Shown: positions 3,437-35,237 of the stretch, piece after piece | How positions within the stretch are numbered: position 1 is the first letter of the stretch | Layout of the letters: every line of letters begins with the position of its first letter | NCBI GenBank assembly: GCA_030606635.1 | Contig: JAUWGA010000001.1 | Coordinates: 1-35,237, forward strand | Direction: 5' to 3' | DNA from: Methanosarcinales archaeon | GTDB lineage: Archaea; Halobacteriota; Methanosarcinia; Methanosarcinales; Methanogasteraceae | Length of the DNA stretch: 35,237 nt | Made by a program: the position numbers and the translations under genes | The notes under the pieces: model-generated | What the model saw: the letters and a program-made list of their open reading frames with translations, nothing else | Told to the model about the DNA's origin: nothing | The model's database searches: none

Positions 3437-3563
3437 ATATGCGAGCGGGAGTGTGGGGTTTGGGGGGGTAGTGTGGGGAGGGGGTAGTGTGGTAAAAAAA
3501 GAGGTTTTTTCAAAAACCCGCTCGCATATATGCCATATTGTGGTGTGATACTATTTAAACCTT
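3437..3563. repeat. Copy 1 of a composite element: 13-bp terminal inverted repeat enclosing a G-tract/AGTGTGG-repeat core, followed by a TATA-like box
   Basis: ATATGCGAGCGGG (3437-3449) pairs with CCCGCTCGCATAT (3517-3529). The core contains runs of G4, G7, G4 and G4 and repeated (T)AGTGTGG units. TGATACTATTTAAACCTT lies at 3546-3563. Confidence 0.85.
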
Positions 3564-3694
3564 ATGGTTTCAACAGAATATTCGTCATAATCCTGACATA
3601 TTCACAGCCAACATTGCCATACGGACCTACCACCCATTAGACCGTAGTCGTAGTCAAAACTGAAGCAATCGAAAGTGAAGAACTTGGTAGGGGG

Positions 3695-3806
3695 ATATGC
3701 GAGCGGGAGTGTGGGAAGTGGGGAGTGGGGGTTAGTGTGGTTAAAAAGAGTTTTTAGAAACCCGCTCGCATGTTACACCACTACTACCTGATACTATATA
3801 AACCTT
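3695..3806. repeat. Copy 2 of the same composite element
   Basis: ATATGCGAGCGGG (3695-3707) pairs with CCCGCTCGCAT (3761-3771). The G-rich AGTGTGG/AGTGGGG core is present. TGATACTATATAAACCTT lies at 3789-3806. On the minus strand this box reads TTTATATA, about 25 nt upstream of the hairpin. Confidence 0.85.
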
Positions 3807-3870
3807 GCGGCGCGGTGGGGCTGTCACGCCATGCCACCTTGCGCGAACATCCGCATAAGAGGTGGGGGGA

Positions 3871-4959
3871 TCACCGCTTCACCGCAAGCGCGTGCAACGG
3901 AAAGAGGGCGAGCGCGCCCACAGCGACTCCGGCGATTCCGAAGAGTGCTACGTAATCGGCATACAAGAGAATTCCTGCCGCAACTACCGGAAGTGCGGCA
4001 AATCCGGCATAAGTGCATGTATTAAAGACCCCCATCGCCATGCCGCGATCAGAACCGAGGGAGGCAACCCCCGCGACAAGCCCGACCATCGCAAACCCGG
4101 ATCCGGCGCCCATGATAGTAAGCCCGATCGGATGGTATATGGTCGCCACGATGCCGATTCCGGTTATCAGCGCACCTGCCCGGATCAGCCAGCGTTCAGT
4201 GGTACACGCACGACCGCCGATGAGCGAGGTCACCATCGCTCCAAAATAGACACCGGAAAGCGCAAGTCCCAGAGGGGACGGCGTTAAATCCGTGAAAGAT
4301 GGGAAATAAGCAACAAGAACCCCTGTCGCACCAAATAAGACGAAGGCGATCACCCATATCTGTAGATACCGCGCATCGGAAAGGATCGCGAATACACCCG
4401 AAATCCTCTGTGGTGCAGGCGGGATATCCGGATCATCGGGCTCCTGTTTCAGTGAAATCACAAGCACCAGTGCAGGGACTGCGAGCAAGGTAAATACCAG
4501 TATTCCACTTTTCAGATGGTAATACGTAAGTTCGGCAGCGGCTACAACACCGAGAGCAAGTCCGACATTGATCAGAAAAGTAAACTCTCCTATGTACTGC
4601 CTTCGATTCTTAAATTTCGTGAGCATCGAGAACGCTGCCGGAAAGAAAGCCCCGCAGGCGCACCCTTCGACAAAACGCGCAGACACGAGGATCTGCGGGG
4701 AGTCGGATAAGAAGAGCAGGACTCCGGATATGATCGTCAGAACGATACTGAGCAGGATAAACCGCGTATTTCCGTACCGGTCAGCAAGCATCCCGAGCGG
4801 GATCATCGAGACGAGTGCGCCTGCAAAGTACGCGGAGAAGATCATGCTCTGCACAAACGTTTCACCAGAGAGATCCGGGAGAATCGGCACAACCGCATCC
4901 GAGAGCCCCATGATCACGAAGACCGAGAGATAGAGACACGCGCGTATCCGGTTCATCAT
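3871..4959 (-). CDS. MFS-type transporter
   Basis: 362 aa with about 10-12 hydrophobic helices. An MFS loop 2-3 type motif is present (GMLADRYGNTRF, compare G-x-L-x-D-R-x-G-R). Confidence 0.8.
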   Translation of the reverse strand: MMNRIRACLYLSVFVIMGLSDAVVPILPDLSGETFVQSMIFSAYFAGALVSMIPLGMLADRYGNTRFILLSIVLTIISGVLLFLSDSPQILVSARFVEGCACGAFFPAAFSMLTKFKNRRQYIGEFTFLINVGLALGVVAAAELTYYHLKSGILVFTLLAVPALVLVISLKQEPDDPDIPPAPQRISGVFAILSDARYLQIWVIAFVLFGATGVLVAYFPSFTDLTPSPLGLALSGVYFGAMVTSLIGGRACTTERWLIRAGALITGIGIVATIYHPIGLTIMGAGSGFAMVGLVAGVASLGSDRGMAMGVFNTCTYAGFAALPVVAAGILLYADYVALFGIAGVAVGALALFPLHALAVKR

Positions 4960-22144: not shown

Positions 22145-24859
22145 ATGAACCACACCAAAAAAGCACTCCAAAACGTCAGAGGTGAGGTGTACACCGATCT
22201 TGCGACGCTGTACTGCTATTCAACCGATGCGAGCATCTACCAGGTCATTCCGTCCGCCGTGGTCTGCCCAGGCGATGCAGAAGACGTCCGCGAGTGTGTG
22301 AAGGCGGCAAAGGAACTTGGAATTCCCGTCACAGCAAGGGCTGCCGGAACCAATCTCGCAGGAAGCTCTCTTGGTAGGGGGATTATTCTGGATATCTCAA
22401 AGAAGATGAACCGGATTCTTGGCATCGTGGAGAAAGGCGGTGAATTCTTTGTGGATGTGGAGCCAGGAGTCGTAATAAATGATCTTCAGGCGCATCTCGG
22501 TGAGAAAGGGTTATTTCTCCCGTCCGACCCGTCGAGTTCTGAGATCTGCATGGTGGGTGGCAATATCGGGACGAAGGCGAGCGGGGCTAAGTCTGTGAAA
22601 TATGGGACCACAGATGATTACGTGACTGATGTGGAGTTCGTATCAGCAGACTGCGAGATCATCGACACCGCCAGAGCAGAGACCATCCCGGACCGGATAT
22701 CATCCGGATTATTCGGACTAAAAAAGCGGATACTTGCTGACACCGATACAATAGCACGTCTCGAATCGAAAAGGGACGTAAAGACTGCAAGCGGATATAA
22801 TATCAGGGCGATGCTTGATCAGGACCGCATCGGCGGGATGATCGCACATCTGATGTCCGGAAGCGTCGGAACGCTTGGCATCTTCACACGGATACGGCTA
22901 AAGGTTCTCCCGATCGTATCGGGAACGGCTATCAGTGCGATATACTTCAAAAAGTTATACGATGCCGGCGATGCAGTCCAGCACATCAAGAAACTCGATC
23001 CTGTAAAGATCGAGATGATGGACTCGACTTCTCTTGAAATCGTCCGGGCAGAGCATCCTGACATGGGTATACCTGCGAATACGCGTGCGCTCTTCGTTGA
23101 ATTCGAGGGCGACGACCGAAAATCAAAGATAGACGATCTTGAGCGGATGATTCATGAGCGGTATGATGTATGCTCAATTTTTTCCGAATCAGAGGACGAA
23201 GAAGTACAGGAAAGGATATGGGCCGTCAGAAAAGCGCTCGTCCCGATCCTGACAAACTATGATGCGGATATGAAGCCGGATGCGTTCATCGACGACGTTG
23301 CTGTCAGAATACCTGATCTTGCACCGCTGATATGCGATCTGCATGAGATATTCGAGGAGTATGGCATAACTTCGGCAGTTTACGGACACGCAGGATCTGG
23401 GAATCTGCATATCAGACCGATGCTGAACTTAAACGACCCAAAAAACATCGATCTGCTGCCTGAACTGGTGGATCGTGTCTACGATATCGTATTCAAGTAC
23501 AACGGCACCATGACCGGCGAGCACGGGATGGGGCGACTCAGGACGATGTTCCTCAAAAAAGAGTGGGGTGGCGGGATATACGGCTACATGCAGCAGATAA
23601 AGGAGATTTTCGACCCTGATGACATCCTGAATCCTGATGTAATCTTCAGCGACAGGCAGATCACGGATGATATAAAATACCCGACAGAATATATAAATAG
23701 ATTTGAAAAAAAATGCATCAACTGCGGGTACTGCAAATCAGTCTGTCCGATATCGATCACACTGAAGGGGGAATCAGGTTCGAGGTCGTTTCTACAGCTT
23801 GCAAGGTTCCGAAAACTCGAAAATCCCGGACATGGCGAGTCGCGCATTGCAGGAAAGATGCTTGGCACGTGTCTCGGCTGCTTAAGGTGCGCGACCAGAT
23901 GCCCGAGCCATGCGAGTATCGGAGAACTGCTCTTTTCTCAGAAGACCCCGCCCCTTTATACCAGACAGGCGATGCGTACATGGGCATCTAATTACAACCG
24001 ATTCGAGCGGTATGCGCGGTTCTTTGGGAGGATCGCAATGCCGGCGGCAGAAACACTCCTCGGGAGGGAGCTTCCAAAGATCAGGAGAGCGCCGCTGGTA
24101 CTCGATGAGTGTGTGCAGGAACAGAATCCGGATGCGATGAACGTCGCGGTGTTTGTGGGGTGCGCATCCGCGCTCTTCGATGATCAGGTCGCCTGCTCGA
24201 TGATAAGGGTGCTTGTAAAGAGTGGATTCAATGTCTTTATCCCTGAGCAACAGTGTTGCGGGCTTCCGATGATCGAGGAAGGGATGTACGATCTGGTAAA
24301 GGAGACCGCAAGGAAGAACGTCGCCGCATTCGCTGACGAGAGGTACGACGCCATCGTGACCTCGTGCGCCTCCTGCACCATGATGCTTAAGAAATTCGGG
24401 GAACTGCTGGAAGGGGATGAACTGGGCGACGCCGCGGCGAGGGTGTCATCGATCACATACGATATCGGCGAGTTTCTTGTAAAGCATCTTGACGACGGCA
24501 TGTTGTCGGGAAAGAAACTTGATATCCGTGCAGCATATCACAATCCCTGCCATCTCGCCGCTGCTGGAGTTGGGAATGGGGGCGATATACTTAGAAGAAT
24601 CGTATCCGAGTTTGTCGAACTTGAGGACGGGTGCTGCGGCGGGGCTGGCACATACAGTTTCTTGCATTCGGACCTCTCTGCGAGGATATTCGAGCGGAAA
24701 CTTGACGACATCCGAAAGATCGACCCTGATGTGGTTGTCACCACCTGCCCGAGTTGCGAACTCCAGTTCAGGCACGGTCTCGAGAGGAACGGGGTGGACT
24801 GCGAGGTGCGGAATATCGTCGAGATTCTGGACCGGTATTATGAGGAGAACAGGGTTTGA
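22145..24859 (+). CDS. Fused FAD-linked oxidase (GlcD/D-lactate dehydrogenase-like) + 2x[4Fe-4S] ferredoxin + CCG-domain (GlcF/HdrD-like) oxidoreductase
   Basis: 904 aa. It has an N-terminal FAD_binding_4 region (ARAAGTNLAGSS) and the GEHGMG motif. The two Cys clusters are CINCGYCKSVCP and CLGCLRCATRCP. The two C-terminal CCG motifs are QQCCGLP and EDGCCGGAG. Confidence 0.85.
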   Translation: MNHTKKALQNVRGEVYTDLATLYCYSTDASIYQVIPSAVVCPGDAEDVRECVKAAKELGIPVTARAAGTNLAGSSLGRGIILDISKKMNRILGIVEKGGEFFVDVEPGVVINDLQAHLGEKGLFLPSDPSSSEICMVGGNIGTKASGAKSVKYGTTDDYVTDVEFVSADCEIIDTARAETIPDRISSGLFGLKKRILADTDTIARLESKRDVKTASGYNIRAMLDQDRIGGMIAHLMSGSVGTLGIFTRIRLKVLPIVSGTAISAIYFKKLYDAGDAVQHIKKLDPVKIEMMDSTSLEIVRAEHPDMGIPANTRALFVEFEGDDRKSKIDDLERMIHERYDVCSIFSESEDEEVQERIWAVRKALVPILTNYDADMKPDAFIDDVAVRIPDLAPLICDLHEIFEEYGITSAVYGHAGSGNLHIRPMLNLNDPKNIDLLPELVDRVYDIVFKYNGTMTGEHGMGRLRTMFLKKEWGGGIYGYMQQIKEIFDPDDILNPDVIFSDRQITDDIKYPTEYINRFEKKCINCGYCKSVCPISITLKGESGSRSFLQLARFRKLENPGHGESRIAGKMLGTCLGCLRCATRCPSHASIGELLFSQKTPPLYTRQAMRTWASNYNRFERYARFFGRIAMPAAETLLGRELPKIRRAPLVLDECVQEQNPDAMNVAVFVGCASALFDDQVACSMIRVLVKSGFNVFIPEQQCCGLPMIEEGMYDLVKETARKNVAAFADERYDAIVTSCASCTMMLKKFGELLEGDELGDAAARVSSITYDIGEFLVKHLDDGMLSGKKLDIRAAYHNPCHLAAAGVGNGGDILRRIVSEFVELEDGCCGGAGTYSFLHSDLSARIFERKLDDIRKIDPDVVVTTCPSCELQFRHGLERNGVDCEVRNIVEILDRYYEENRV

Positions 24860-24889
24860 GGTTTACGCCGTTTGAAAGGGGCTATCGAG

Positions 24890-27800
24890 TTATTCCAAAG
24901 AACGTTCGATTTCAGAGTGACACCATCCGGGTCTGCGCAGTAGGTTGAAAGTATCTATGTAACGGACTGATGCGCCCCCGGCAGCTGCAACAGCTTCATC
25001 AAGAATTCCCTGCGGATTCTGTGTGTCCCATAATGGATGAACGATAATAACCTTCATGATTCTGGTTTCAAATCCTGGCAGAGTTCCCCATGTTCGGGAC
25101 TGGTGGTCATCAAACTGTGATGCAAAGTTATCGGACAGTTTGGTAGCAAAATCTATCCAGCCATCCAATTCGGGCGTCGTGAACTGACCATCGAGCCCGC
25201 ACAAATACCGCGAGTCCTTGAGTATATGTAGATAAGCCAATGCAAGACGCCAGTCCAGAAGACCGTGATAATTCATGTTCCGGTACCTCATGAGACAAGC
25301 ATAACATGCAGAGTCACAGGAGGAACGATGCGACTCAGAAACAATCTTTGTAGGGAAGGAACCCGGATCATTCGGCGATACGATTCCATGCAACACTGAG
25401 TCCCAGTTATCAGATATCCAGCGCACAAAACCTGCCCCGTTGGCAAGGAAGTCGCTCAACGTGATAGCGCCCACATACATGCCGTCAACCTCCAGACACT
25501 GAAAATTACAAATTTCAATTTCATCAGGGTCTATATCCAGCCTCTCGGAAGCTGCCGCTCTCAAAAGGAATGCAGCAGAATAAATGGCTGCTTTGACACC
25601 ACCGCTGGAAGTGACCGGGTCAAGGTTTAAACCCGGAGGTACTGATAACGGTCTGAACCTTAAAACATCGGTCGTCTTACCTGCAGCAATGGCAATCCGC
25701 TGGATTTCTTCTGGTCGATCTTTGCTGACATAAGCAATGTAATCTGATGAAATCCACTGATTACCAAGAACGGGTTTTTCTGTTAGTGGATCCTTCGTAT
25801 CATGTCGGTACCCTCTTGTTGTAACCAATCCCCCCTCAAAAAGTTTTCCAGCGTTGTCGTTGATACGCCATACACGACACTCAGAGGAAAAACTTGTCTC
25901 GCAGTTAGAGCTTACTTTCGTGGAAAATTTTGATTCAGCGCTCTCCGCGACAGAGGTTGGTATTCCGTAAAGAATGTCTCCTCCTTCCTTAGCATCCTTG
26001 CCTCGTGATAGGTCTGTTCTGAATGCAAGCGGTACCGCTGCCAAGTAGCTTTTGAAGTACGGTCCTTGTGGTGTTTTGCAGTATTTGCACTCAGTTTCAG
26101 AGTGTTGCAGGTCGCTTACTATTATATTACCACATCTCAGACAGCGCACCATCCAGCGCGTGGAAAACGGGTCAGCAGCGAGAGGCGCCCACTGCCCGCG
26201 ACGGTTCACAAGAGGTGCTGTAAATCCAATGGCGGTATGAATGGCTTTATCCTTGGTTTTCTGAGCTCCTGGCGCAAATTCAGTAACCGCCAGCTCCAGA
26301 TCTCGATCTACTGTCGATTCTTTTCCGCGCAGTTGATGATAGAGCAGCCGGCTGCGTGACGGCATCCCATACATTGGCAGGATGCCGCCTTCAGCCAGTC
26401 GTTCTGCCAATCCTATTCCAGCTCCCGCGAGTTCTGGGTTAGTAGATGCCTGATCGATCGATTCAGGCAGTTTGTTGCTGAGATAGTCCAACCATTCCTC
26501 GATCTTTCGCTGGTCCACATTTCCAACGAGTGCTCTGATAACGTCCTCTCTTGAATCGTCTGTCCGCAGCCAATCCAATACCTGTTGCTGAACTTCATGC
26601 CACTTCTCGACAAACCCGAACTCACCATGGCTGTCTGGGGGCTTCTCGGGGCAGTCCCACCACCGCACTCCAGCATCCCAAAACGCTCTGCGCAGACATT
26701 CCCTTGCCAGCAGCCGCTGAACAATTCGCTCCTGTTTCATGGTGAGAAATGGCACCGGTGGGGCGCCGCCTGTAATCTGTTCTGGATTAGCAAAATAAAA
26801 CTCGTCGTGGCTGCGGCCGCGGCAGAGTGTGAGAACTGTTGCAAACGCCTGACCGCGTCGCCCAGCTCTGCCGACTCGCTGTTGATAGTTAAAACGCATG
26901 GGGGGCATGTTTGCGAGCATCACTGCCTGCAAGTCTCCGATGTCCACTCCAACCTCCAAAGTAGTTGTAACGCTGAGAACATCGATCTTATCAACCTTTT
27001 CAATAAGAACCTCTTCCTGTCCTGCAAGATCAACGAAAATGTCGCGAAAATGCCTCTGCCGTTTAGCCTGATCATCGGTCTGGGCTGTCAACTCTTCGCA
27101 GTGAAGTCTAATTGGAACGCGCTTCGCTTCTGCTGCTGCATAAGCCAGATAGTTGTGTTGCCAGAGATCCTTGCAGGTGTGGTTGGGCTGTTCTGGAAGC
27201 TGTTTGTGGCAGTTTGTACAGATTCCAGCAGAGTAATGCAGGTGTGGTCGGCGGCAGGTGTGGCATATCCACACGGGATCGTCTGGAAGAGCTACTTTTA
27301 CATCGAGACTGCTTGTTTGGATCATCCCGTTCTTATGCCCGGCTGTACGAAGTGCAGAGAATATTGCCGGACCGACGTCTCGTTCATTCAGCCCCCATTT
27401 TTGGCAGACGGCGCATACAAAGTCTCTGAAGCTGACACGGGCATCGCTATAGTCGGGCCAACCGTATTGTTTAAACTCAGATCCATCGTGGCGGTAGAGG
27501 TCGCCTAATATCCGCAAAGCAGAGTCGCATGCCTGCCGGAAACACTCTAACTGCTCCTGCTGGTGTCCTGCTTCAGATGCGTGGGTTTCAAGTTTCTGGT
27601 CATCAAGCCCCAATTTGAGATAACCAAGCCCTGAAGATTCCATGCTAAAATATAGGCGGCTGAAGAACAGGTCGCACAACCCTTCTCTAACCTTCTTGCG
27701 GAGTGTATTTTTAGCACGGTCCGTATCGGGTGGAAGCCCGTCTTTCCATCTCTTTTCTGTAAAATCGAAAAGTTCAGTCCAGCTGTGCCAGTTCTCTTCC

Positions 27801-30673
27801 CATTTGAAACGCTGTGCATCGAGGTCATTTCCAGCAGGATTCACTCCTGTACCGAGAAGTCTGCTGAGAAGCCTCCCGCATTCAGCAGTATTTCCTTTAT
27901 GAGGGTAGATCAAGTCGCTTACATGAACAACCCGCGACTTCCCTCGCTGCCTGATGATGTTGAGCCTTTGTTCGGCGTCATCCAAAGCATGTTGCAGAAC
28001 TATGTTGGCATGTTCAGGAAGTTCGACAGGGATGCCACCTCTAACCAATTCAACATCTCCACGGATCGCAGTATCAGATCCTGGGGTTTCTTCAACATAT
28101 TCTGCTGCAAGAGAACCGTATGTGGTACGGTTCTGTTCAATATCATCGAGCAATTGAGGTTCGCCCAGTGTTGCCATGAGCAGTTCGTGTATCACCGACT
28201 CACGGAGCAAATCCGAATAGTGGTTGCGCTCTACACCGTTGGAGATCTGTGCTGCATCTTCGCGGCTGTCAGAAAACGAAACAAGTTTGCGCCCTTCATC
28301 AGGTAACTGGTAGAACAGTTCTTTTGTGAGTATCTGGCTGACCTTGGAAAAACCAGTCCTGAAACCGCGTACAGGCGATCTCCGTGAGAGTTTTTTGGCG
28401 TAGTCTTTTGCGCAGCACGCACAGACCGAAGGAAGTGCGGTAAAGGACTCCCTCGCCTCATCACCTTCAGCATCTAATAGGGATCCGAATTTCTTTCCTT
28501 TTTTTGTGCCAATTTGAAAGAGATAGCCTTTCACCCAGTTATCCGGATCTTCTGAATATTTCTCATGCGACAGATCTACCCTCCCTGAACGTGTATCAAG
28601 ACTGGCAGGAGTCCACTGACCTTTTTTTACCGCCACCCCAATCCGGTTAGGTTGGCTCCAGATAGACGCGTCTTCATGAAGCTGTAAATTTCCAACAGGC
28701 CAGAACACAGCAAACTCCTTGTAAGTGCGGCGTTCGATAAAACGTGCTGCCTGTCGGTCAGGAATCCCCTCGATATCCGGATCTGATGGCAGCATTTCAA
28801 TGACACCCTCCCCGAGATCCAATCTGTTTCCACCAAAGTAAACAGCGCCGCAATGCTCGCAGAGGAGTAATTCTAGGACTCGACGTCCCTTTTTAGTAAT
28901 GATTCTCGGAGAAGAATATAATGTTCCGACTGGTCTTCCGTCTTCTGCGTATGCAGGCGGTTTGGTAGATGCCCACAACCCTTCAGTGCTGCGGAAAAAC
29001 CAGTGAAGGCGGAATGATGGTAGCGATGATTGTTCTCCTTCATCATCGCAAATACTACGAGCTGCAAGAAGTCCGCGGACAGCTTCCCGTCTATTTTCCC
29101 CTGATACTGCTGTTCCAAAGAGCTTCTCTGCAAAGTCATCGAGCGAAACAGCACGCGTTTCCCCCTCACACTCACATGCCTTCTGCGTTCTGGTGGCAAT
29201 GCGCATACCATCTGATTCCATCTGTTCTTTTAGAGCCAACTTTCCAGATGGTGCGTCTCCTCGGTACCCAAGAGAAACTGCTGCTTTCTGACAGGCATCA
29301 TCAGAAAAATCAGGCGCATCCTGACTGAGAGTAACGAACGGTTCGGATGGCAAAAAATCAGATCCGGCAATCTCTGGAATTTGATTTTGACGCCCCCGGA
29401 TTATCTCAAAGCTGTCTGCTTGAGCACCGAAGAAATCATGGAGAAATTCACGGCTTTTGGGATTGTCAGGGTCCAGCGAGGCGCTGGAGCTTAAGATGCG
29501 CAACTTAAGATGGTCTGGTGTAAGTCCCAGACGCAGGAGCAACAACCTCAAAAGATATGCCACCTCAGCGCCAGCCGTCCCCCTGTAGAGGTGCAGCTCG
29601 TCAATGATCAAATGAAACACTCTATCGTCCCCACCCGCCAACCACCGCCGCGTCTTCTCAAAGATGGGATCATCTATCTCGCGCATGAGCATGATGCTCA
29701 ACATCGAAAAGTTGGTTATCAGAATATCTGGCGGCGAGTCCTGCATGTCCCAGCGTGAACGCATCTCAGCACCATCAAGTTTGGGGAAATAGGACGTGAC
29801 ATCTGGCTTGTTGTTATCTTTGGCGTATCGCTCAGCAGCATCTGCGTCACGGTCCATGTCCATCAACACGCGAGTAAGTCTATCTATTCTCTTCCGGTCG
29901 GGGTTTCTGTTGCCATTGGCATTCGGCTCCTTAAATTCATGTCCCGGGATGGGTGTGCTGCCGTTGTAACGTCCAAAGTAGATTTTGTTCCCCTCTCGGT
30001 TATGCTGAAACCACTCCCTCGCGTCATCCGAGTCAAGAGCTTTGCGGAGGCGAGTAAGCTGGTCTTCAACCAGCGCATTCATTGGATAAATGATCAATGC
30101 ACGAACAGCAGCATCCCTCTGCTCGTGACCCCGCTGAGAAACTCTGTAAGAACGCTGTATCCGGTTGTGTTCGTTACAGCAGGAATCCTGCCACTGGCTA
30201 TCATTCCACCAGTTGTTAACGTGGGGGTCTGGCGTATCCGGGGCTACCCAGCCAGAAGACTCTCGTGCAAGGTAAGCGAATAGCGGAAGAAGGAATGCTT
30301 CAGTCTTGCCTGAACCGGTGCCGGCAGTAACCACACAGTTTGTACCTTCTAACACTCTTTTAAGCATTTCCGTCTGGTGGTCATACAGTTCGTAGTCTCC
30401 GAACAGACCACATGCAACCAACGACTTAAAATCGGATATTTCCTGATTGCTGAGTCCATGGAGGTCTTCTTCTTTTAAATCCTGAATAGTCTTCCCAGAT
30501 TTCTGGTATATTGGCAGCGGTTCAATCCAAGGTTCCTGACACAGGACCCCGAGCTCTCGCAGCAGTTCTTCCCTTTCAGCCTCTATGGATGGAAAACGGG
30601 TGCCGAATACAGTCTGTATGTACCGGATAAAGTTATCCCGGATAGTATCAAATGCGCCAACCGGGTCTTTCAT
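24890..30673 (-). CDS. Giant DEAH-box superfamily-2 helicase with internal Zn-ribbons and a C-terminal DUF1998/MrfA-type Zn-binding domain (DruE-like)
   Basis: 1,927 aa. Checked on the DNA: Q/Ia region LYDHQ, Walker A AGTGSGKT (30302-30325) and motif II DELH (29591-29602). Motif VI is QQRVGRAGRRGQ. The Cys pairs are CEHCG, CACC, CHTC...CTNC and CLRC...CKYC. The DUF1998-like signature is CDSACYACLMRYRNMNYHGLLDW (its first Cys codon at 25316-25318). Its ATG overlaps the upstream stop (ATGA). Confidence 0.9.
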   Translation of the reverse strand: MKDPVGAFDTIRDNFIRYIQTVFGTRFPSIEAEREELLRELGVLCQEPWIEPLPIYQKSGKTIQDLKEEDLHGLSNQEISDFKSLVACGLFGDYELYDHQTEMLKRVLEGTNCVVTAGTGSGKTEAFLLPLFAYLARESSGWVAPDTPDPHVNNWWNDSQWQDSCCNEHNRIQRSYRVSQRGHEQRDAAVRALIIYPMNALVEDQLTRLRKALDSDDAREWFQHNREGNKIYFGRYNGSTPIPGHEFKEPNANGNRNPDRKRIDRLTRVLMDMDRDADAAERYAKDNNKPDVTSYFPKLDGAEMRSRWDMQDSPPDILITNFSMLSIMLMREIDDPIFEKTRRWLAGGDDRVFHLIIDELHLYRGTAGAEVAYLLRLLLLRLGLTPDHLKLRILSSSASLDPDNPKSREFLHDFFGAQADSFEIIRGRQNQIPEIAGSDFLPSEPFVTLSQDAPDFSDDACQKAAVSLGYRGDAPSGKLALKEQMESDGMRIATRTQKACECEGETRAVSLDDFAEKLFGTAVSGENRREAVRGLLAARSICDDEGEQSSLPSFRLHWFFRSTEGLWASTKPPAYAEDGRPVGTLYSSPRIITKKGRRVLELLLCEHCGAVYFGGNRLDLGEGVIEMLPSDPDIEGIPDRQAARFIERRTYKEFAVFWPVGNLQLHEDASIWSQPNRIGVAVKKGQWTPASLDTRSGRVDLSHEKYSEDPDNWVKGYLFQIGTKKGKKFGSLLDAEGDEARESFTALPSVCACCAKDYAKKLSRRSPVRGFRTGFSKVSQILTKELFYQLPDEGRKLVSFSDSREDAAQISNGVERNHYSDLLRESVIHELLMATLGEPQLLDDIEQNRTTYGSLAAEYVEETPGSDTAIRGDVELVRGGIPVELPEHANIVLQHALDDAEQRLNIIRQRGKSRVVHVSDLIYPHKGNTAECGRLLSRLLGTGVNPAGNDLDAQRFKWEENWHSWTELFDFTEKRWKDGLPPDTDRAKNTLRKKVREGLCDLFFSRLYFSMESSGLGYLKLGLDDQKLETHASEAGHQQEQLECFRQACDSALRILGDLYRHDGSEFKQYGWPDYSDARVSFRDFVCAVCQKWGLNERDVGPAIFSALRTAGHKNGMIQTSSLDVKVALPDDPVWICHTCRRPHLHYSAGICTNCHKQLPEQPNHTCKDLWQHNYLAYAAAEAKRVPIRLHCEELTAQTDDQAKRQRHFRDIFVDLAGQEEVLIEKVDKIDVLSVTTTLEVGVDIGDLQAVMLANMPPMRFNYQQRVGRAGRRGQAFATVLTLCRGRSHDEFYFANPEQITGGAPPVPFLTMKQERIVQRLLARECLRRAFWDAGVRWWDCPEKPPDSHGEFGFVEKWHEVQQQVLDWLRTDDSREDVIRALVGNVDQRKIEEWLDYLSNKLPESIDQASTNPELAGAGIGLAERLAEGGILPMYGMPSRSRLLYHQLRGKESTVDRDLELAVTEFAPGAQKTKDKAIHTAIGFTAPLVNRRGQWAPLAADPFSTRWMVRCLRCGNIIVSDLQHSETECKYCKTPQGPYFKSYLAAVPLAFRTDLSRGKDAKEGGDILYGIPTSVAESAESKFSTKVSSNCETSFSSECRVWRINDNAGKLFEGGLVTTRGYRHDTKDPLTEKPVLGNQWISSDYIAYVSKDRPEEIQRIAIAAGKTTDVLRFRPLSVPPGLNLDPVTSSGGVKAAIYSAAFLLRAAASERLDIDPDEIEICNFQCLEVDGMYVGAITLSDFLANGAGFVRWISDNWDSVLHGIVSPNDPGSFPTKIVSESHRSSCDSACYACLMRYRNMNYHGLLDWRLALAYLHILKDSRYLCGLDGQFTTPELDGWIDFATKLSDNFASQFDDHQSRTWGTLPGFETRIMKVIIVHPLWDTQNPQGILDEAVAAAGGASVRYIDTFNLLRRPGWCHSEIERSLE

Positions 30674-31689
30674 GAGATCACTCCATTGCTGTCAGGTACG
30701 GTACTGTGGTCTATCAGGTTTTGCGATAGTTTCTCTGAAATCATCGTGGCGACAGGTGGGGGTACAGCACAGTAGATATCCATGGGATGTCCGGCAGGCA
30801 CCCCTCCTACTGACTGCTCACCCATGCGCGCTGGTGCTGGAGCCAGTCCGGTGCAGAGGGTAGCAGCTCTTGCCAGAAAGCGTGGAAGCGGCACATACGC
30901 GGGCACAGCCAGCTGATGGCGCCGTTTGTCATATAGCAAGACATCCGCCCCTTCGTCTGCAATAATCATATATCGCCCCCAGTCCCGATCCACTTCAGCC
31001 GCCCGGTTACTATCCCAGATCCAGTGACGTTTCTGCTGGCTCCTGGGATCGGTATATTCAACCAGTCCCTGCACGTTTTCAGTATTGTGGTTCTTGGAAA
31101 AGGTCAGAGTATTGGCAGAAAAAGTTCGTTTGAGCCAGTTGATATCGGCTCTATCCTCATAAGATAAGTTATGCCTGACATTTCCAATTCCTGCCGAAAA
31201 ATTAACCAGCGACCATGCAGCCGGCGCCGTTAGATGGCATCCTATCTGTGCGGCTTGAGCTACTTTCTGAAGATGATCGTGATCGACCGCCTCGATGTAG
31301 ATCGCTGGAGGAAGGAGGGGGTGCTCACTTCTCTGCAATTTGATGCTATGTGAAACAGAGTTCCGGTTACCTTTTGCAAAATCTTTCATCTTCTGAACCA
31401 TCGAGGGAGTCCTGGCACCTGTTAAAACCGCTTTGGGCAAACCATACGGCGGCAGGGCAACAAGAACAGGTGGGCAGGCAAAAACATGGCGTTTGTCAAA
31501 ATTGAACTCGCAATGGCCCAACGAGTCCAGATATCGGATAGTCTGGCGCCGGACGTGATTAAGATCGACTTCGCTTGTCGATATTCCGGGTAACTGGCAC
31601 AGTGCATCAAAGGCAGCATTGAACTTATCTATGCTCATCCGCCCACTCGTGCTGATGGCTTGCAGAAGTAACTTAGACACGTTTTGCAA
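30670..31689 (-). CDS. Hypothetical protein (~335-339 aa), middle gene of the helicase cassette
   Basis: Long ORF with a 4-nt ATGA overlap onto the helicase start. The listed start at 31689 is a TTG directly abutting GGGAGG. A GTG at 31680 sits 9 nt after that GGAGG and is the more likely start. I recognise no domain. Confidence 0.8.
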   Translation of the reverse strand: MQNVSKLLLQAISTSGRMSIDKFNAAFDALCQLPGISTSEVDLNHVRRQTIRYLDSLGHCEFNFDKRHVFACPPVLVALPPYGLPKAVLTGARTPSMVQKMKDFAKGNRNSVSHSIKLQRSEHPLLPPAIYIEAVDHDHLQKVAQAAQIGCHLTAPAAWSLVNFSAGIGNVRHNLSYEDRADINWLKRTFSANTLTFSKNHNTENVQGLVEYTDPRSQQKRHWIWDSNRAAEVDRDWGRYMIIADEGADVLLYDKRRHQLAVPAYVPLPRFLARAATLCTGLAPAPARMGEQSVGGVPAGHPMDIYCAVPPPVATMISEKLSQNLIDHSTVPDSNGVIS

Positions 31690-33733
31690 CCTCCCTGTAC
31701 TTATTCCATATGTCCCGGATTTTCGGAAGCGCTGGATATCCGGTCTTCTGATATTCAGTCTTCTTACGTTTGACCCATATCGCTTCCCTCCACCGTTTTA
31801 CAGCATGGAGATTGCTTATTGCATGGTTGGGGTTAGGTATGGTTCCTGCATCTTCAGGCTGCCCGCAGAAATGGACAGGCCATTTATCCGTCTCAGACTT
31901 GTCGACTGCCCAGACAGGCTGCCATTCATCTGGCAGATCCTCATCAGGCCAGTCTACTATTTCACCAGGTCTGGCACCTAAAAACGTGATTCTGCGTGAC
32001 AGGTATGTGGGAAGAGTCGGCGGAAGAACGGGGGGTGGACCAACGCCAGCAACAACTGCCCCTGTGGCGCATGGCATGGAAACATCGCCGATCAGCATCT
32101 GACCTGAACTGTCCCGCGATGGCACATCCTTAAACGATACCGGAAGTTCCGGTTCTTCCAGCCTTATCACATGCTTCTGCAAAGGATCCGGTCCATCTTT
32201 GAAGACCCGAATATTTAATGGGCAGTTAACGGGTGCATCGGCAGGGATGTGCCAGCGAGCAATGGACACATCTTCTCGCTTGAGTTCATCTTCGTTGAGC
32301 GTGACACGTTCACTTCCGTCACCGCCTTCTATGACGATTAGCGGAGGTCCGAACTTAAGATATCTGTTGCCCCGTCCGATCTTTATCCCGCCTTGAAGCC
32401 GGATACGCAACAGGCTGGAAAGCGTGAGTACGTCAACACCCTCGCAGGATTCATGCGCACTCCTGCCTTCAAATATCGCCCATCCAGAAGGTAGCCCTTG
32501 AAGCAACTGTTCTTCGAATTTTTCGCAGCAGTCAGTTCCCCACCGCTGCACATCCGCCACCCTGCTGTCGCTGCACGCTACCATAAACTCACAATTTCGT
32601 TCCAGACGTTGTGATTCAACCCACCCTGGAAGCCCTTCTCTATTTCCTAGCAGGAAAAGCCTCACATCAGTCCCTTTGAGGTGTGCTCTCCATTTGTTTT
32701 CTTTATCCTCAAACCTTACACCAGTAGACCAATTTACTGTTGCCGCATCCAATGGTCGTTGAGGTCGTATGTTGGTGTTCGTCAACTTTGTTGACCAGTT
32801 TGGCATAGTCTCTCTGCACGAAACCATTTGTCCAGCATATTCGAATTCAAGACCGTTATCTGGAAATGGACGGTTGGTTTTGAGCCGGAGAGTTGGTGCA
32901 ATTGTTCCTGAAACTCTGTTCAGTTCGAGACAGATGCGTAGTCCCACTTGTGAGGGGGTGTGATCTAAATCTGATATGGTGTACGAAATAACACTCCCAT
33001 CCCAGTCAACAAGTTCATTGAGTACAAGATCGATGAGTGCATTCACCATCTCAATGCTATCACCTTGTGTTCCGTCCAGAAGTTTCAAGGTGCGGTTTTC
33101 CAGCCCATCCTTACCGTAGCTCAATAGAACTCGCCTGATTACTGCATCAGAAGGGGTATCAGTCGGGTCAAGTTCTGCTTCACTGAAGATCAGAGGTAAA
33201 TAATTCCGCTCATCATCAGACAGGAGAGTTTGTGATAATGGACGCCCGACATGAACCTTGCCACCGCGAATGCGTGCAGCGAAGCGCCCCAATTCTTCAT
33301 GTTTGTCTTCTGTACTCCACTTTTGCAAGTCTTCCCACAGTTCCGCCATGTGGTCAAAGTGTAGCGGTGTGCCTGAACCACCAGGTTCGCCTAACAAGGG
33401 CCAGAGTTTGGGATAATAAGCTTTTGGATCATAATCCCCGCCTCTAGTTGCCGCTAAGACGAAAAGTGCTAAATATGCAATATACGGAGGATATTCCAGA
33501 TTTTTGATTCTCCAGCCACGATAAGATTGTAAAGCCTTATTGCATATAGCACCCTTTGTTGCCCAATCCGGACCGACTTTAACAGACTGTATAAAATCTT
33601 CAACGTCTGCGCCCGTCTCTACTCCTATCTGGTTTATAGTATCTTCATTAACATATAGCAGCACTTCCCGTCCAGCCATCATTTCATTGAAAAACTTGCG
33701 GGCTATAAGATTATTCCATTCTATGTAGTTCAT
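31673..33733 (-). CDS. Hypothetical protein, 686 aa, first large gene of the helicase cassette
   Basis: Uninterrupted ORF with an ATG start. It overlaps the next gene by 8-17 nt. I found no nucleotide-binding, nuclease or methyltransferase motif. Confidence 0.85.
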   Translation of the reverse strand: MNYIEWNNLIARKFFNEMMAGREVLLYVNEDTINQIGVETGADVEDFIQSVKVGPDWATKGAICNKALQSYRGWRIKNLEYPPYIAYLALFVLAATRGGDYDPKAYYPKLWPLLGEPGGSGTPLHFDHMAELWEDLQKWSTEDKHEELGRFAARIRGGKVHVGRPLSQTLLSDDERNYLPLIFSEAELDPTDTPSDAVIRRVLLSYGKDGLENRTLKLLDGTQGDSIEMVNALIDLVLNELVDWDGSVISYTISDLDHTPSQVGLRICLELNRVSGTIAPTLRLKTNRPFPDNGLEFEYAGQMVSCRETMPNWSTKLTNTNIRPQRPLDAATVNWSTGVRFEDKENKWRAHLKGTDVRLFLLGNREGLPGWVESQRLERNCEFMVACSDSRVADVQRWGTDCCEKFEEQLLQGLPSGWAIFEGRSAHESCEGVDVLTLSSLLRIRLQGGIKIGRGNRYLKFGPPLIVIEGGDGSERVTLNEDELKREDVSIARWHIPADAPVNCPLNIRVFKDGPDPLQKHVIRLEEPELPVSFKDVPSRDSSGQMLIGDVSMPCATGAVVAGVGPPPVLPPTLPTYLSRRITFLGARPGEIVDWPDEDLPDEWQPVWAVDKSETDKWPVHFCGQPEDAGTIPNPNHAISNLHAVKRWREAIWVKRKKTEYQKTGYPALPKIRDIWNKYREVAKRV

Positions 33734-33834
33734 ACTTTTCTGTCCTGTTCAGCAATTTCTAACCGCTTTCCACCACTGTTCAAGTACTTCATTGCGAAAT
33801 TGTCTATGGATATCTTTGCTTTTACTTTCACCAT
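33730..33834 (-). CDS. Candidate leaderless 34-aa micro-ORF at the head of the cassette
   Basis: My own translation gives MVKVKAKISIDNFAMKYLNSGGKRLEIAEQDRKV*. Its TGA overlaps the ATG of the 686-aa gene (ATGA). Its ATG lies 27-34 nt downstream of a TTTATAAT box, which is the spacing expected for a leaderless archaeal mRNA. Confidence 0.3.
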   Translation of the reverse strand: MVKVKAKISIDNFAMKYLNSGGKRLEIAEQDRKV

Positions 33835-33860
33835 ACCCTAAAACTTATAGAACTTCATGG

Positions 33861-33868
33861 ATTATAAA
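33861..33868 (-). promoter_or_regulatory. Archaeal TATA-box candidate for the helicase cassette
   Basis: The minus strand reads TTTATAAT (consensus is about TTTAWATA). It is centred about 30 nt upstream of the micro-ORF ATG and about 130 nt upstream of the 686-aa ATG. Confidence 0.35.
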
Positions 33869-34052
33869 GTTTGTTAGTGCTGCAGTTGTATTCGTGGTAA
33901 TCTGCTATGAACAATCGCCCATGGCAACGTTTGTGCGATAAACTCGCAGGACACCGTGAAAACTCCGAAAGCCCGATCTCTATCGAACACCTTTCAAGCT
34001 GACACAGCCTCTGAAGACTGTTACGGGCTCAGATCGTTCGAGGCGCGTCTGT

Positions 34053-34721
34053 CTACATCCACCTCGTAAGATACTCGACCGCCTCGACAACGCCTGCACC
34101 ATACTCGCCAGCGGTCACGAGATCGGCAGCACCCTTAAGTGCAGGATGCGCATTTCCGACAGCGACCCCAAATCCAGCTGCGGCAAGCATCTGTATATCG
34201 TTTTCAGAGTCCCCGATGGCAGCAAAGTCGCTTGCATCGATACCCATGAGACCAGCTATCCGGAAGAGTCCGGTTCCCTTGTCCACATCCTTGCTCTTCA
34301 GATGGATGGCGTAACCGGAATCCACAACATCGATCCCCTCGCCAACGATCTGCCGCGCATCCGCGGCATCAAAGTTCCTCCGAAGCGCTATATCGGTCTT
34401 CCTGTACTCTGAATCGAGTTTTTGGATGTGCACACCAAGATGTTCTGTCAATACATCAAACGCACGCTCACATGCATCGATATCGCCATCGTAGTACTCC
34501 TTGCCATCGTATTCAAGCGAGATTACGCCGCCGTTCTCTGCTATGATCTGCCCGCCGGTTCCGATCAGTTTTGCTGCTGCCCTTGCAAAGCAGAGCACGT
34601 TACCGGTGGCAAGCACGATCGGGATATTAAGCGAGCGAAGGCACGCAACTGCGCGGCAGTCGATGCTCCGGTCCTTATGCGTCAGCGTGCCATCGATATC
34701 GATCGCAATCGCCTTTATCAT
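34053..34721 (-). CDS. HAD-IIB phosphatase, archaeal phosphoglycolate phosphatase type
   Basis: 222 aa. HAD motif I is AIDIDGTLT, motif II is LATGN and motif IV is [11 protein letters not shown]. Length and layout match archaeal PGP/SPP-like enzymes. Confidence 0.8.
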
Positions 34722-35237
34722 ATATCGAATAGCCCCTCTGGTGTCACTGTGTATAGTGCCTCGCCGTCCGGAAGGTTGGGCGAGTCGACCAGTTTTGCAA
34801 CCCGTTTGTCACCTTTCGATTTCCGCAGGTATAGCCGGAATGTCGAGGTGTGCCCGAGAATGTGCCCGCCGATCGGTTTTGTCGGATCGCCGAAGAACGC
34901 ATCTGGCTTTGACATCACCTGGTTGGTCACAAAGACCATCGCATTGTGGAGGTCGCCAAATCGCATGAGGGCGTGCAGATGCTTGTTTAATTTCTGCTGC
35001 CGATCAGCAAGCGTGCCCCTGCCGACATACTCCGCCCGGAAGTGCGCTGTCAGCGAATCGACAATCAGGAGGCGTACCGGCTTATCAGTATCCCGGAGCG
35101 AATCCGCAAGTTCGGATGCGGTGTCCATGAGAAGGATCTGATGGTTGGAGTTGTATGCACGGGCAACATGGATGTTTTTTAGGAATTCCTCGGGATCGTA
35201 CTCGGTTTCGTATCTCTTCGCCGCCCCTTCCACCATG
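34718..35237 (-). CDS. radA: DNA repair and recombination protein RadA, C-terminal part (N-terminus lies beyond the window)
   Basis: The ATPase-core Walker B region is [19 protein letters not shown]. The ...NQV...[48 protein letters not shown] tail is characteristic of archaeal RadA/Rad51. The frame is open to the window end. Confidence 0.9.

Follow-up and report, generated by a model that had tools for sequence, protein, structure and literature searches.

The DNA analysed here (the window) is a stretch of 35,237 nucleotides (contig JAUWGA010000001.1, positions 1 to 35,237) from a methane-oxidising, Methanogaster-like archaeon of the ANME-2c group (anaerobic methanotrophic archaea, group 2c). 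Its minus strand carries three co-directional, adjacent and overlapping genes, druF, druL and druE, of which druF and druL lie upstream of druE (Table 1). The third open reading frame (24890-30673) is open throughout and encodes a protein of 1,927 amino acids (aa). It is almost certainly druE, the gene for the signature helicase of a translationally coupled druF-druL-druE cassette of Druantia type IV. Two DruE models from PADLOC match the protein end to end, DruE2 (PDLC00014/15) with 1917.7 bits (residues 1-1924 against model positions 1-1925 of 1928) and DruE4 (PDLC00051) with 1867.5 bits (residues 1-1924 of 1927). DruF yielded no usable match in Pfam or the PDB, and neither did DruL, for which a search with a DruL profile was included and a MarR-family chain scored best (E 0.62). 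Druantia type IV has been defined as DruE, DruF and DruL in the absence of DruM and DruG (Payne et al. 2021, PMC8565338). Since all three components are present and neither the DruM methylase nor DruG was found in the window, the cassette is assigned to type IV. We consider the type IV DruE identity combined with the mechanism proposed below the best overall explanation and assign it a probability of about 0.75.

For a conservation survey, 80 genomic loci were fetched and 77 full-length proteins with 34-87% identity were aligned. These relatives span many bacterial phyla as well as ANME-1, Methanogaster, Heimdallarchaeota and Methanobacteriota. The nearest homologues stem from Candidatus Methanogaster (86-87%), followed by ANME-1 (67-68%), and hundreds of bacterial homologues, all of full length, share about 50-55% identical residues. 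Members of the family are 1,880-2,180 aa long, and no indel of more than 4 aa separates the window's protein from its nearest homologues. Judged from this alignment, no architectural feature is lineage-specific, and the conservation of motifs, inserts and cysteine sites is far from what chance would produce.

A sequence search of the PDB returned entries 9WAE (E 1.4e-256, residues 3-1915), 9TU7 (E 1e-44) and 6ZNP (E 4e-10). The first is a 1,970-aa protein designated "Helicase" with six sister entries (9WAF, 9WDS, 9WDU-9WDY), for which a literature search yielded no descriptive paper. In piecewise alignments it shares with the window's DruE both inserts in the first RecA-like lobe (RecA1), the three Cys4 sites, the MZB cluster and the tail motifs (HPLW, DTFxLxRRP) described below. 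Judged by sequence only, this relative has diverged (phmmer 858 bits versus about 1,900 on the PADLOC DruE models), and its insert 1 is shorter. The initial annotation of this DNA, made from the sequence alone, had suspected a DruE- or MrfA-like helicase, and the PADLOC models, 9TU7 and the sequence and fold matches to MrfA bear this out. It had also implied that the architecture was unusual. That part does not hold, as the protein aligns end to end with a characterised family (PADLOC DruE2/DruE4, 9WAE and the 77 relatives). With its 1,927 aa it is an ordinary DruE; inserts, zinc sites and C-terminal tail alike occur throughout the family and were described earlier. The main yield is a clean annotation: an uncultured methane-oxidising archaeon possesses a standard Druantia type IV system with a helicase of full architecture.

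The cassette is flanked by archaeal housekeeping genes, i.e., those for RadA, a HAD phosphatase, an oxidase dependent on flavin adenine dinucleotide (FAD) with CCG domains, ELP3 and fumarase. It occupies the same chromosomal site in another metagenome-assembled genome (MAG) of Methanogaster, where RadA, HAD, druF-druL-druE and a convergent FAD oxidase gene are found in the arrangement seen at 22145-35237 of the window. The site of the cassette therefore predates the split of the two genomes. When 60 related genomes were searched, eight gave matches, comprising four full-length copies, two cases of fragments only and two weak partial matches; with the window's own genome counted, nine of 61 match and five carry a full-length copy. 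Such a patchy distribution is usual for defence genes. One could argue from the neighbouring genes for RadA, HAD phosphatase and FAD oxidase, and from MrfA as the nearest solved fold in the PDB copy searched by Foldseek, that the protein serves housekeeping DNA repair as an MrfA/YprA-type helicase and not defence. We regard this as extremely improbable: the score is about 1,900 bits on DruE models versus 41 bits against MrfA, the gene is coupled to druF and druL and present in few relatives, and homologues adjoin methylase and nuclease genes in other phyla.

Domain architecture of DruE

The protein belongs to helicase superfamily 2 (SF2). The Walker A motif AGTGSGKT (aa 117-124), DELH (aa 358-361) and the motif VI sequence QRVGRAGR are all present, and residues K123, D358/E359/H361 and Q1265/R1269/R1272 are invariant in all 77 relatives. 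The motifs and positions originally listed for the protein, including the cysteine motifs and a gap of about 235 aa between Walker A and DELH, were all exact. This spacing, 235 residues here, ranges from 215 to 266 in the 77 relatives with a median of 240. It had been ascribed to a large insertion in lobe 1. The inserted sequence is real, ordered and conserved; on the evidence of the alignment and an AlphaFold2 model of residues 1-1200 (61 homologues, mean pLDDT (predicted local distance difference test) 87.9), however, the extra spacing is made up of two separate inserts (~140-190 and ~240-305), not one. The Pfam DEAD match on RecA1 (1.2e-15) breaks at residue 215. An alignment to type III DruE leaves query residues 140-181 and 250-304 unmatched; the type III protein lacks both inserts and has only about 130 residues between motifs I and II (G118/G120 to D251/E252). 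Insert 1 is 35-60 aa long in all 77 relatives with invariant W142, W155, W156, R181, E184 and R186, and insert 2 spans 55-89 aa across the same set. Both are ordered in the model (pLDDT overall 75-92), insert 1 being mainly loop and yet predicted with confidence. The inserts were also considered as low-complexity linkers, which they are not.

Table 1 Genes of the cassette and predicted domains and sites of DruE in the window (aa, residues of DruE)
Feature	Position	Strand	Basis and remarks
druE	24890..30673	-	YprA/MrfA-family SF2 helicase, Druantia type IV; open frame, PADLOC, PDB 9WAE
druL	30670..31689	-	339 aa; PADLOC DruL4 1.3e-107; stop overlaps druE start (ATGA, 4 nt)
druF	31673..33733	-	686 aa; PADLOC DruF4 2.6e-223, DruF2 4.2e-220; 17-nt overlap with druL
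N-terminal region ahead of RecA1 (aa 1-95)	30389..30673	-	AlphaFold2, pLDDT ~90
RecA1 lobe (aa 96-430)	29384..30388	-	Walker A 30302-30325, DELH 29591-29602; motif conservation
RecA1 insert 1 (aa 140-190)	30104..30256	-	Trp-rich ordered loop module; pLDDT 88-92
RecA1 insert 2 (aa 240-305)	29759..29956	-	long helix 260-287 and short helix 292-295; pLDDT 75-90
Helical domain after RecA1 (aa 431-553)	29015..29383	-	six helices, pLDDT 85-96
Beta-rich zinc-binding domain (aa 554-760)	28394..29014	-	all-beta in AlphaFold2; clasped by Cys4 site 1
Cys4 site 1, CEHC (aa 605-608) and CACC (aa 751-754)	28850-28861 and 28412-28423	-	C605/C608/C751/C754 in 77/77
Large helical insert in RecA2 (aa 804-1130)	27284..28264	-	long helices 804-846 and 887-913, winged-helix-like parts
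Cys4 site 2, CHTC...CTNC (aa 1137-1155)	27209..27265	-	also in 9WAE; Pfam DZR_2 weak, E 0.0064
C-terminal part of RecA2 (aa 1185-1320)	26714..27121	-	motif V TTTLEVGVD, motif VI QRVGRAGR; Pfam Helicase_C 2.3e-07
Helical and OB/connector region (aa 1321-1700)	25574..26713	-	alignable with 9WAE and, Cys pairs included, with the OB/zinc region of type III DruE
Cys4 site 3, CLRC...CKYC (aa 1511-1532)	26078-26143	-	C1511/C1514/C1529/C1532 in 75-76/77; Pfam zinc-ribbon matches weak
MZB/DUF1998 domain (aa 1701-1817)	25223..25573	-	zinc cluster H1782-C1786-C1790-C1793 at 25295-25330
C-terminal tail domain (aa 1818-1927)	24893..25222	-	read as non-catalytic, alpha-beta-beta-beta-alpha-beta; HP[LF]W and D[TS]FNLxRRP motifs

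Bell et al. 2025 (PMC12458937) describe an N-terminal region in every YprA homologue, and the region ahead of RecA1 corresponds to it. The literature places a BrxA-like, winged-helix or five-helix domain where the helical domain following RecA1 is located, and its name is taken from there. In the model, the first elements of the second lobe (RecA2) sit between the all-beta domain (554-760) and the large helical insert (804-1130). The motif IV-like sequence KLVSFSDSR directly precedes this insert and motifs V and VI follow it; the designations stalk/dimerisation and MarR-like for the insert again originate from the literature. The ratio of nonsynonymous to synonymous substitution rates (dN/dS) for the C-terminal part of RecA2 is as low as 0.04 in comparison with the syntenic orthologue from Methanogaster.

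Three extra zinc-ribbon-like Cys4 sites had been proposed to exist beside the MZB cluster, and they stood up to the survey with conservation in 77, 57 and 75-76 of the 77 relatives, respectively. The cysteines C605 and C608 of site 1 align to cysteines of type III DruE, and all four of this site to cysteines of 9WAE. Site 2 is complete in 57 relatives (C1137, C1140 and C1155 in 57, C1152 in 76). In about 20 relatives forming a Bacteroidota-centred clade (loci L040-L074), it is replaced by S-G-C-S at unchanged segment length; this replacement indicates that the site is dispensable in one clade, mostly of Bacteroidota. The accompanying description of the sites as nucleic acid-binding finds only indirect backing in type III DruE from E. 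coli, in which no more than two of the five zinc motifs contact DNA.

The MZB domain carries the sequence CDSACYAC at aa 1786-1793, followed by YHGLLDW at 1802-1808. The Pfam MZB match spans profile positions 3-80 of 80, though with an E-value of 0.039 it stays below threshold. H1782, C1786, C1790 and C1793 are kept in 74-75 of the 77 relatives, whereas C1722 and C1726 are not conserved, and from the alignment the first zinc ligand appears to be histidine, not cysteine. The cluster aligns to cysteines of E. coli DruE whose mutation abolishes defence. We consider the residue-level conservation of the Cys4 sites, the H-C-C-C MZB cluster and the tail motifs over 77 relatives modestly useful.

This whole architecture is already described by Bell et al. 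2025 (PMC12458937), and a solved relative, 9WAE, exists. Their plan for helicases of Druantia types I and II runs from an N-terminal strand through RecA1 with a pair of small inserts, of which the second is a coiled coil, to a BrxA-like helical domain, a beta-barrel zinc-binding module and a MarR-like RecA2 insert with a zinc module, and further through a helical domain and an OB-connector-DUF1998 region with zinc-bearing inserts to an inactivated Vsr-like C-terminus. The window's protein resembles Druantia II/IV DruE from end to end, with two RecA1 inserts, three Cys4 sites, H-C-C-C MZB cluster, tail motifs and DruF/DruL partners; it differs from most of these relatives in its ANME-2c host and in the lack of the DruK nuclease and the DruM methylase at its locus.

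Common to the window's protein and type III-A DruE (E. coli 9TU7-9TUC; P. aeruginosa) are the YprA/MrfA core, an inter-lobe zinc domain, a helical RecA2 dimerisation insert, the OB region with zinc motif and MZB, and several cysteine pairs align between the two. The alignment to 9TU7 ends at MZB, while the window's protein ends 110 aa beyond it. Type III DruE has five zinc motifs, two C-terminal phospholipase D-like (PLD-like) domains and DruH as partner, in contrast to the 110-aa tail and DruF/DruL here. An identity as a type III DruE helicase-nuclease is ruled out, as the two PLD-like domains are missing and the partners are DruF and DruL, not DruH. MrfA was also the best hit when residues 1-1200 were compared with the PDB by Foldseek (6ZNQ, E 1.8e-6, probability 1.0; PDB copy to April 2026, without 9WAE and 9TU7). 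MrfA/YprA from B. subtilis (6ZNP/6ZNQ/6ZNS) has the SF2 core and the OB-connector-MZB canopy in common with the window's DruE. It comprises about 750 residues without inserted domains, extra zinc sites or tail and is a repair helicase with the exonuclease partner MrfB.

The C-terminal tail domain

According to the initial annotation, the protein continues for about 130 aa after the last cysteine cluster. This stretch does contain a genuine conserved domain, although about 24 of the ~134 residues (1794-1817) are the terminal helix of MZB/DUF1998, which leaves a domain of about 110 aa. It contains IIVHPLWDTQNPQG at 1876-1889 and YIDTFNLLRRPGW at 1905-1917. Among the 77 relatives, H1879 and P1880 are retained in 76 each, W1882 in 74, D1907 in 70, F1909 in 76, R1913 in 74 and R1914 in 73. 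In a search of 1.84 billion representatives, 312 cluster representatives were found to carry the domain. It resides at or near the C-terminal end of DruE-length proteins in all long representatives, and short ones resemble gene fragments.

Modelled alone with AlphaFold2, the tail reached a pLDDT of 92.1 and a predicted template modelling score (pTM) of 0.85. The elements in this model, numbered within it, are H28-40, E47-51, E54-58, E63-67, H78-87 and E92-96, followed by further helices, and their predicted order equals the core order of restriction-endonuclease-like (PD-(D/E)xK) folds. No nuclease motif had been recognised in the protein before, and we likewise found none in DruE by Pfam, by motif or by conservation among the 77 relatives. 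Strands 2 and 3 of the tail contain no conserved acidic residue and no (D/E)xK; strand 3 reads V-I-I-V-H. A Foldseek comparison with the PDB gave nothing below E 0.17, and the best match was XisH, a PD-(D/E)xK protein. Weak matches, all with E of at least 0.07, were also obtained against viral models in BFVD, many of them to entries for VRR-NUC, DUF559, restriction endonucleases and resolvases. Profile comparisons by hhalign were not significant for 10 archaeal Vsr proteins (P 0.024) or 17 DUF559 domains (P 0.14), whereas Vsr against DUF559, run as a control, gave P 1e-6. In the weak Vsr alignment, LPG--F falls in register with lpGkPDiv and IVHPLWD with IFvhGCFWH, which places H1879 at the THG histidine and W1882 at the FWH tryptophan. 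The position of the catalytic aspartate of Vsr is a gap or glycine.

Bell et al. 2025 (PMC12458937) label the tail an inactivated Vsr nuclease. Our fold and profile comparisons neither confirm nor reject this label. The missing catalytic aspartate and the lack of (D/E)xK on strand 3 mean that the statement "no recognisable nuclease motif" holds, and they fit the term "inactivated". From the alignment and the model, we interpret the tail as most likely a remnant without catalytic function whose surface is conserved. The ARMADA YprA-like helicases, as described in the same study, are organised similarly between the helical domain and RecA2 and have a C-terminal domain of the PD-(D/E)xK type. Their Vsr nuclease is predicted to be active, unlike the window's tail, which is without catalytic residues.

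Could the tail nevertheless be alive? If the invariant histidine, aspartate and arginine pair formed a non-canonical nuclease or some other catalytic centre, DruE would be a helicase-nuclease similar to the type III protein. The very strong conservation of exactly these residues, the enrichment of PD-(D/E)xK nucleases among the weak fold matches (XisH, VRR-NUC, DUF559, restriction endonucleases) and the in-register Vsr alignment would agree with such a function. Set against this are the deleted or glycine-substituted aspartate position, a strand 3 devoid of (D/E)xK, the contrast between insignificant fold and profile matches and the clear signal of the Vsr/DUF559 control, the inactivation predicted by Bell et al. 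and the occurrence of a separate nuclease, DruK, in most relatives. A live nuclease in the tail is thus quite improbable. The invariant HP[LF]W...D[TS]FNLxRRP surface might also be a working site, for instance one that senses DNA ends or flaps, serves as an allosteric switch or has a catalytic activity not yet recognised, and it would then allow the bare druF-druL-druE set to clear viral DNA without DruK and DruM. While we deem this unlikely, it would, if true, make type IV a nuclease-independent and modification-independent branch of Druantia operating in archaea.

Neighbourhood and evolution of the three-gene cassette

The gene neighbourhood was surveyed in 72 loci where the sequence continues for 1.5 kb or more downstream of druE. 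In 42 of them a DruK gene adjoins druE at its 3' end, and 59 encode a C5 methylase within 10 kb. DruK never occurred in these loci without a C5 methylase nearby. This pairing suggests a restriction-modification-like logic, with DruK and the C5 methylase as an optional module on Druantia II/IV. In loci from ANME-1 and Geosporobacter, a PF12705 protein of 361-378 aa is encoded immediately after druE, which PADLOC identifies as DruK, a Cas4-like PD-(D/E)xK nuclease, and a C5 methylase encoded nearby matched DruM2 with 1.8e-127. Example positions for DruK and C5 methylase genes are L015:11769-14082 as well as L016:13736-14854 and 3442-4593. Neither of the two is present in 13 loci, namely the window, the orthologous locus of Methanogaster, those of seven cyanobacteria and three Bdellovibrionales, and one further locus.

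In the window's genome, no DruK gene was found in the window or the remainder of the assembly, and no PF00145 methylase gene in the whole assembly, which is 73% complete. The cassette might be regarded as a decaying remnant that has lost its effector module, DruK and DruM, and with it the capacity for defence. The frequency of DruK next to druE, which includes the ANME-1 homologue at 68% identity, and that of the C5 methylase in the vicinity could be taken as arguments for such a loss, given that neither was detected here. The state of the genes speaks otherwise. All three are intact, every catalytic and zinc residue is retained, and the three-gene form recurs in cyanobacteria, Bdellovibrionales and ANME-2c and equals the PADLOC definition of type IV. 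In comparison with the syntenic, same-site Methanogaster orthologue, dN/dS amounted to 0.21 for druE, 0.30 for druL and 0.29 for druF, and to 0.17 for the flanking FAD-oxidase gene. The corresponding synonymous divergence (dS) was 0.34 for druE and 0.28 for druF, near the value for the flanking gene (0.32), and lower (0.08) for druL. On the basis of dN/dS values of 0.21-0.30, we state that the three-gene form is under purifying selection and not decaying, and decay with loss of defence is accordingly a very unlikely explanation for the cassette. That DruK is never seen without a C5 methylase, and that a form lacking nuclease and methylase persists under purifying selection, are modestly useful results.

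Note that dS is low in two segments of the cassette, i.e., the tail-coding segment 24893-25222 (0.09) and druL at 30670-31689 (0.08), compared with 0.25-0.57 in other parts of druE, a three- to fourfold reduction (L077). Recent recombination patches or constraint at the nucleotide level could be responsible. The window encodes DruF (about 680 aa) and DruL (about 335 aa) by separate genes; in roughly half of the loci (L029, L040-L075) the two are combined in a fusion protein of about 940-1,150 aa. DruL also matches the C-terminal part of long PADLOC DruF2 models.

Proposed mechanism

In E. coli and P. aeruginosa, type III DruE has 3'-to-5' helicase activity and loads on single-stranded or forked DNA; its MZB cysteines and helicase motifs are essential. 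By analogy, the window's DruE may act as an ATP-driven 3'-to-5' DNA translocase that loads onto invading viral DNA at forks or exposed single strands and unwinds the adjoining duplex. The two RecA lobes would constitute the motor, over which the OB/connector/MZB canopy would close on the strand, and unwinding would need the H-C-C-C zinc site. The inserted domains may be stapled by the three Cys4 sites, one in the beta-rich domain where DNA enters, one at the end of the helical insert of RecA2 and one in an OB insert; at least one of the three probably touches DNA. Dimerisation, binding of DruF/DruL or binding of DNA may involve both RecA1 inserts, the long helical insert of RecA2 and the tail, all of which are candidate interfaces. 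The tail, with its restriction-endonuclease-like topology and its catalytic residues lost, would offer a conserved docking or DNA-guiding surface and would not be a nuclease. As the locus is devoid of DruK and DruM, defence would proceed without a nuclease of its own, the clearing step being carried out by helicase action together with DruF/DruL or by host nucleases. Two studies in E. coli, in which the C-terminal PLD domains of DruE were dispensable for defence, can be set beside this proposal. Modelled on MrfA and type III DruE, the mechanism as a whole has in our estimation about even odds of being correct.

Several points weigh against this interpretation. In the P. aeruginosa study, the PLD nuclease of DruE was essential, so that a nuclease-free mechanism is not established. 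Our literature search found no experiment on type IV Druantia, protection against viruses included. Polarity, substrate and the roles of DruF and DruL are extrapolated from type III, which has a different partner (DruH) and a different C-terminus. The structural basis covers residues 1-1200 and the tail, with residues 1201-1811 outside the AlphaFold2 models, and there is no functionally characterised homologue of the RecA1 inserts. Finally, with the genome at 73% completeness, DruK and DruM could lie on unassembled DNA. The conservation of sites and tail motifs, the pairing of DruK with a C5 methylase and the persistence of the bare three-gene form together sharpen the question of how Druantia types II and IV kill or clear viruses.

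Three observations on individual homologues remain to be mentioned. A same-order genome (G048:C3:52795-58521) contains a full-length druE, 68% identical, whose one in-frame TGA may reflect faulty sequencing or a pseudogene. The partial protein P0011 shares 87% identity with the archaeal DruE and carries the label Nitrospiraceae bacterium (MAG), and this is probably due to a binning error or a very recent transfer. Precomputed Pfam labels put PF27116 (YjiV_N) on most DruE homologues.

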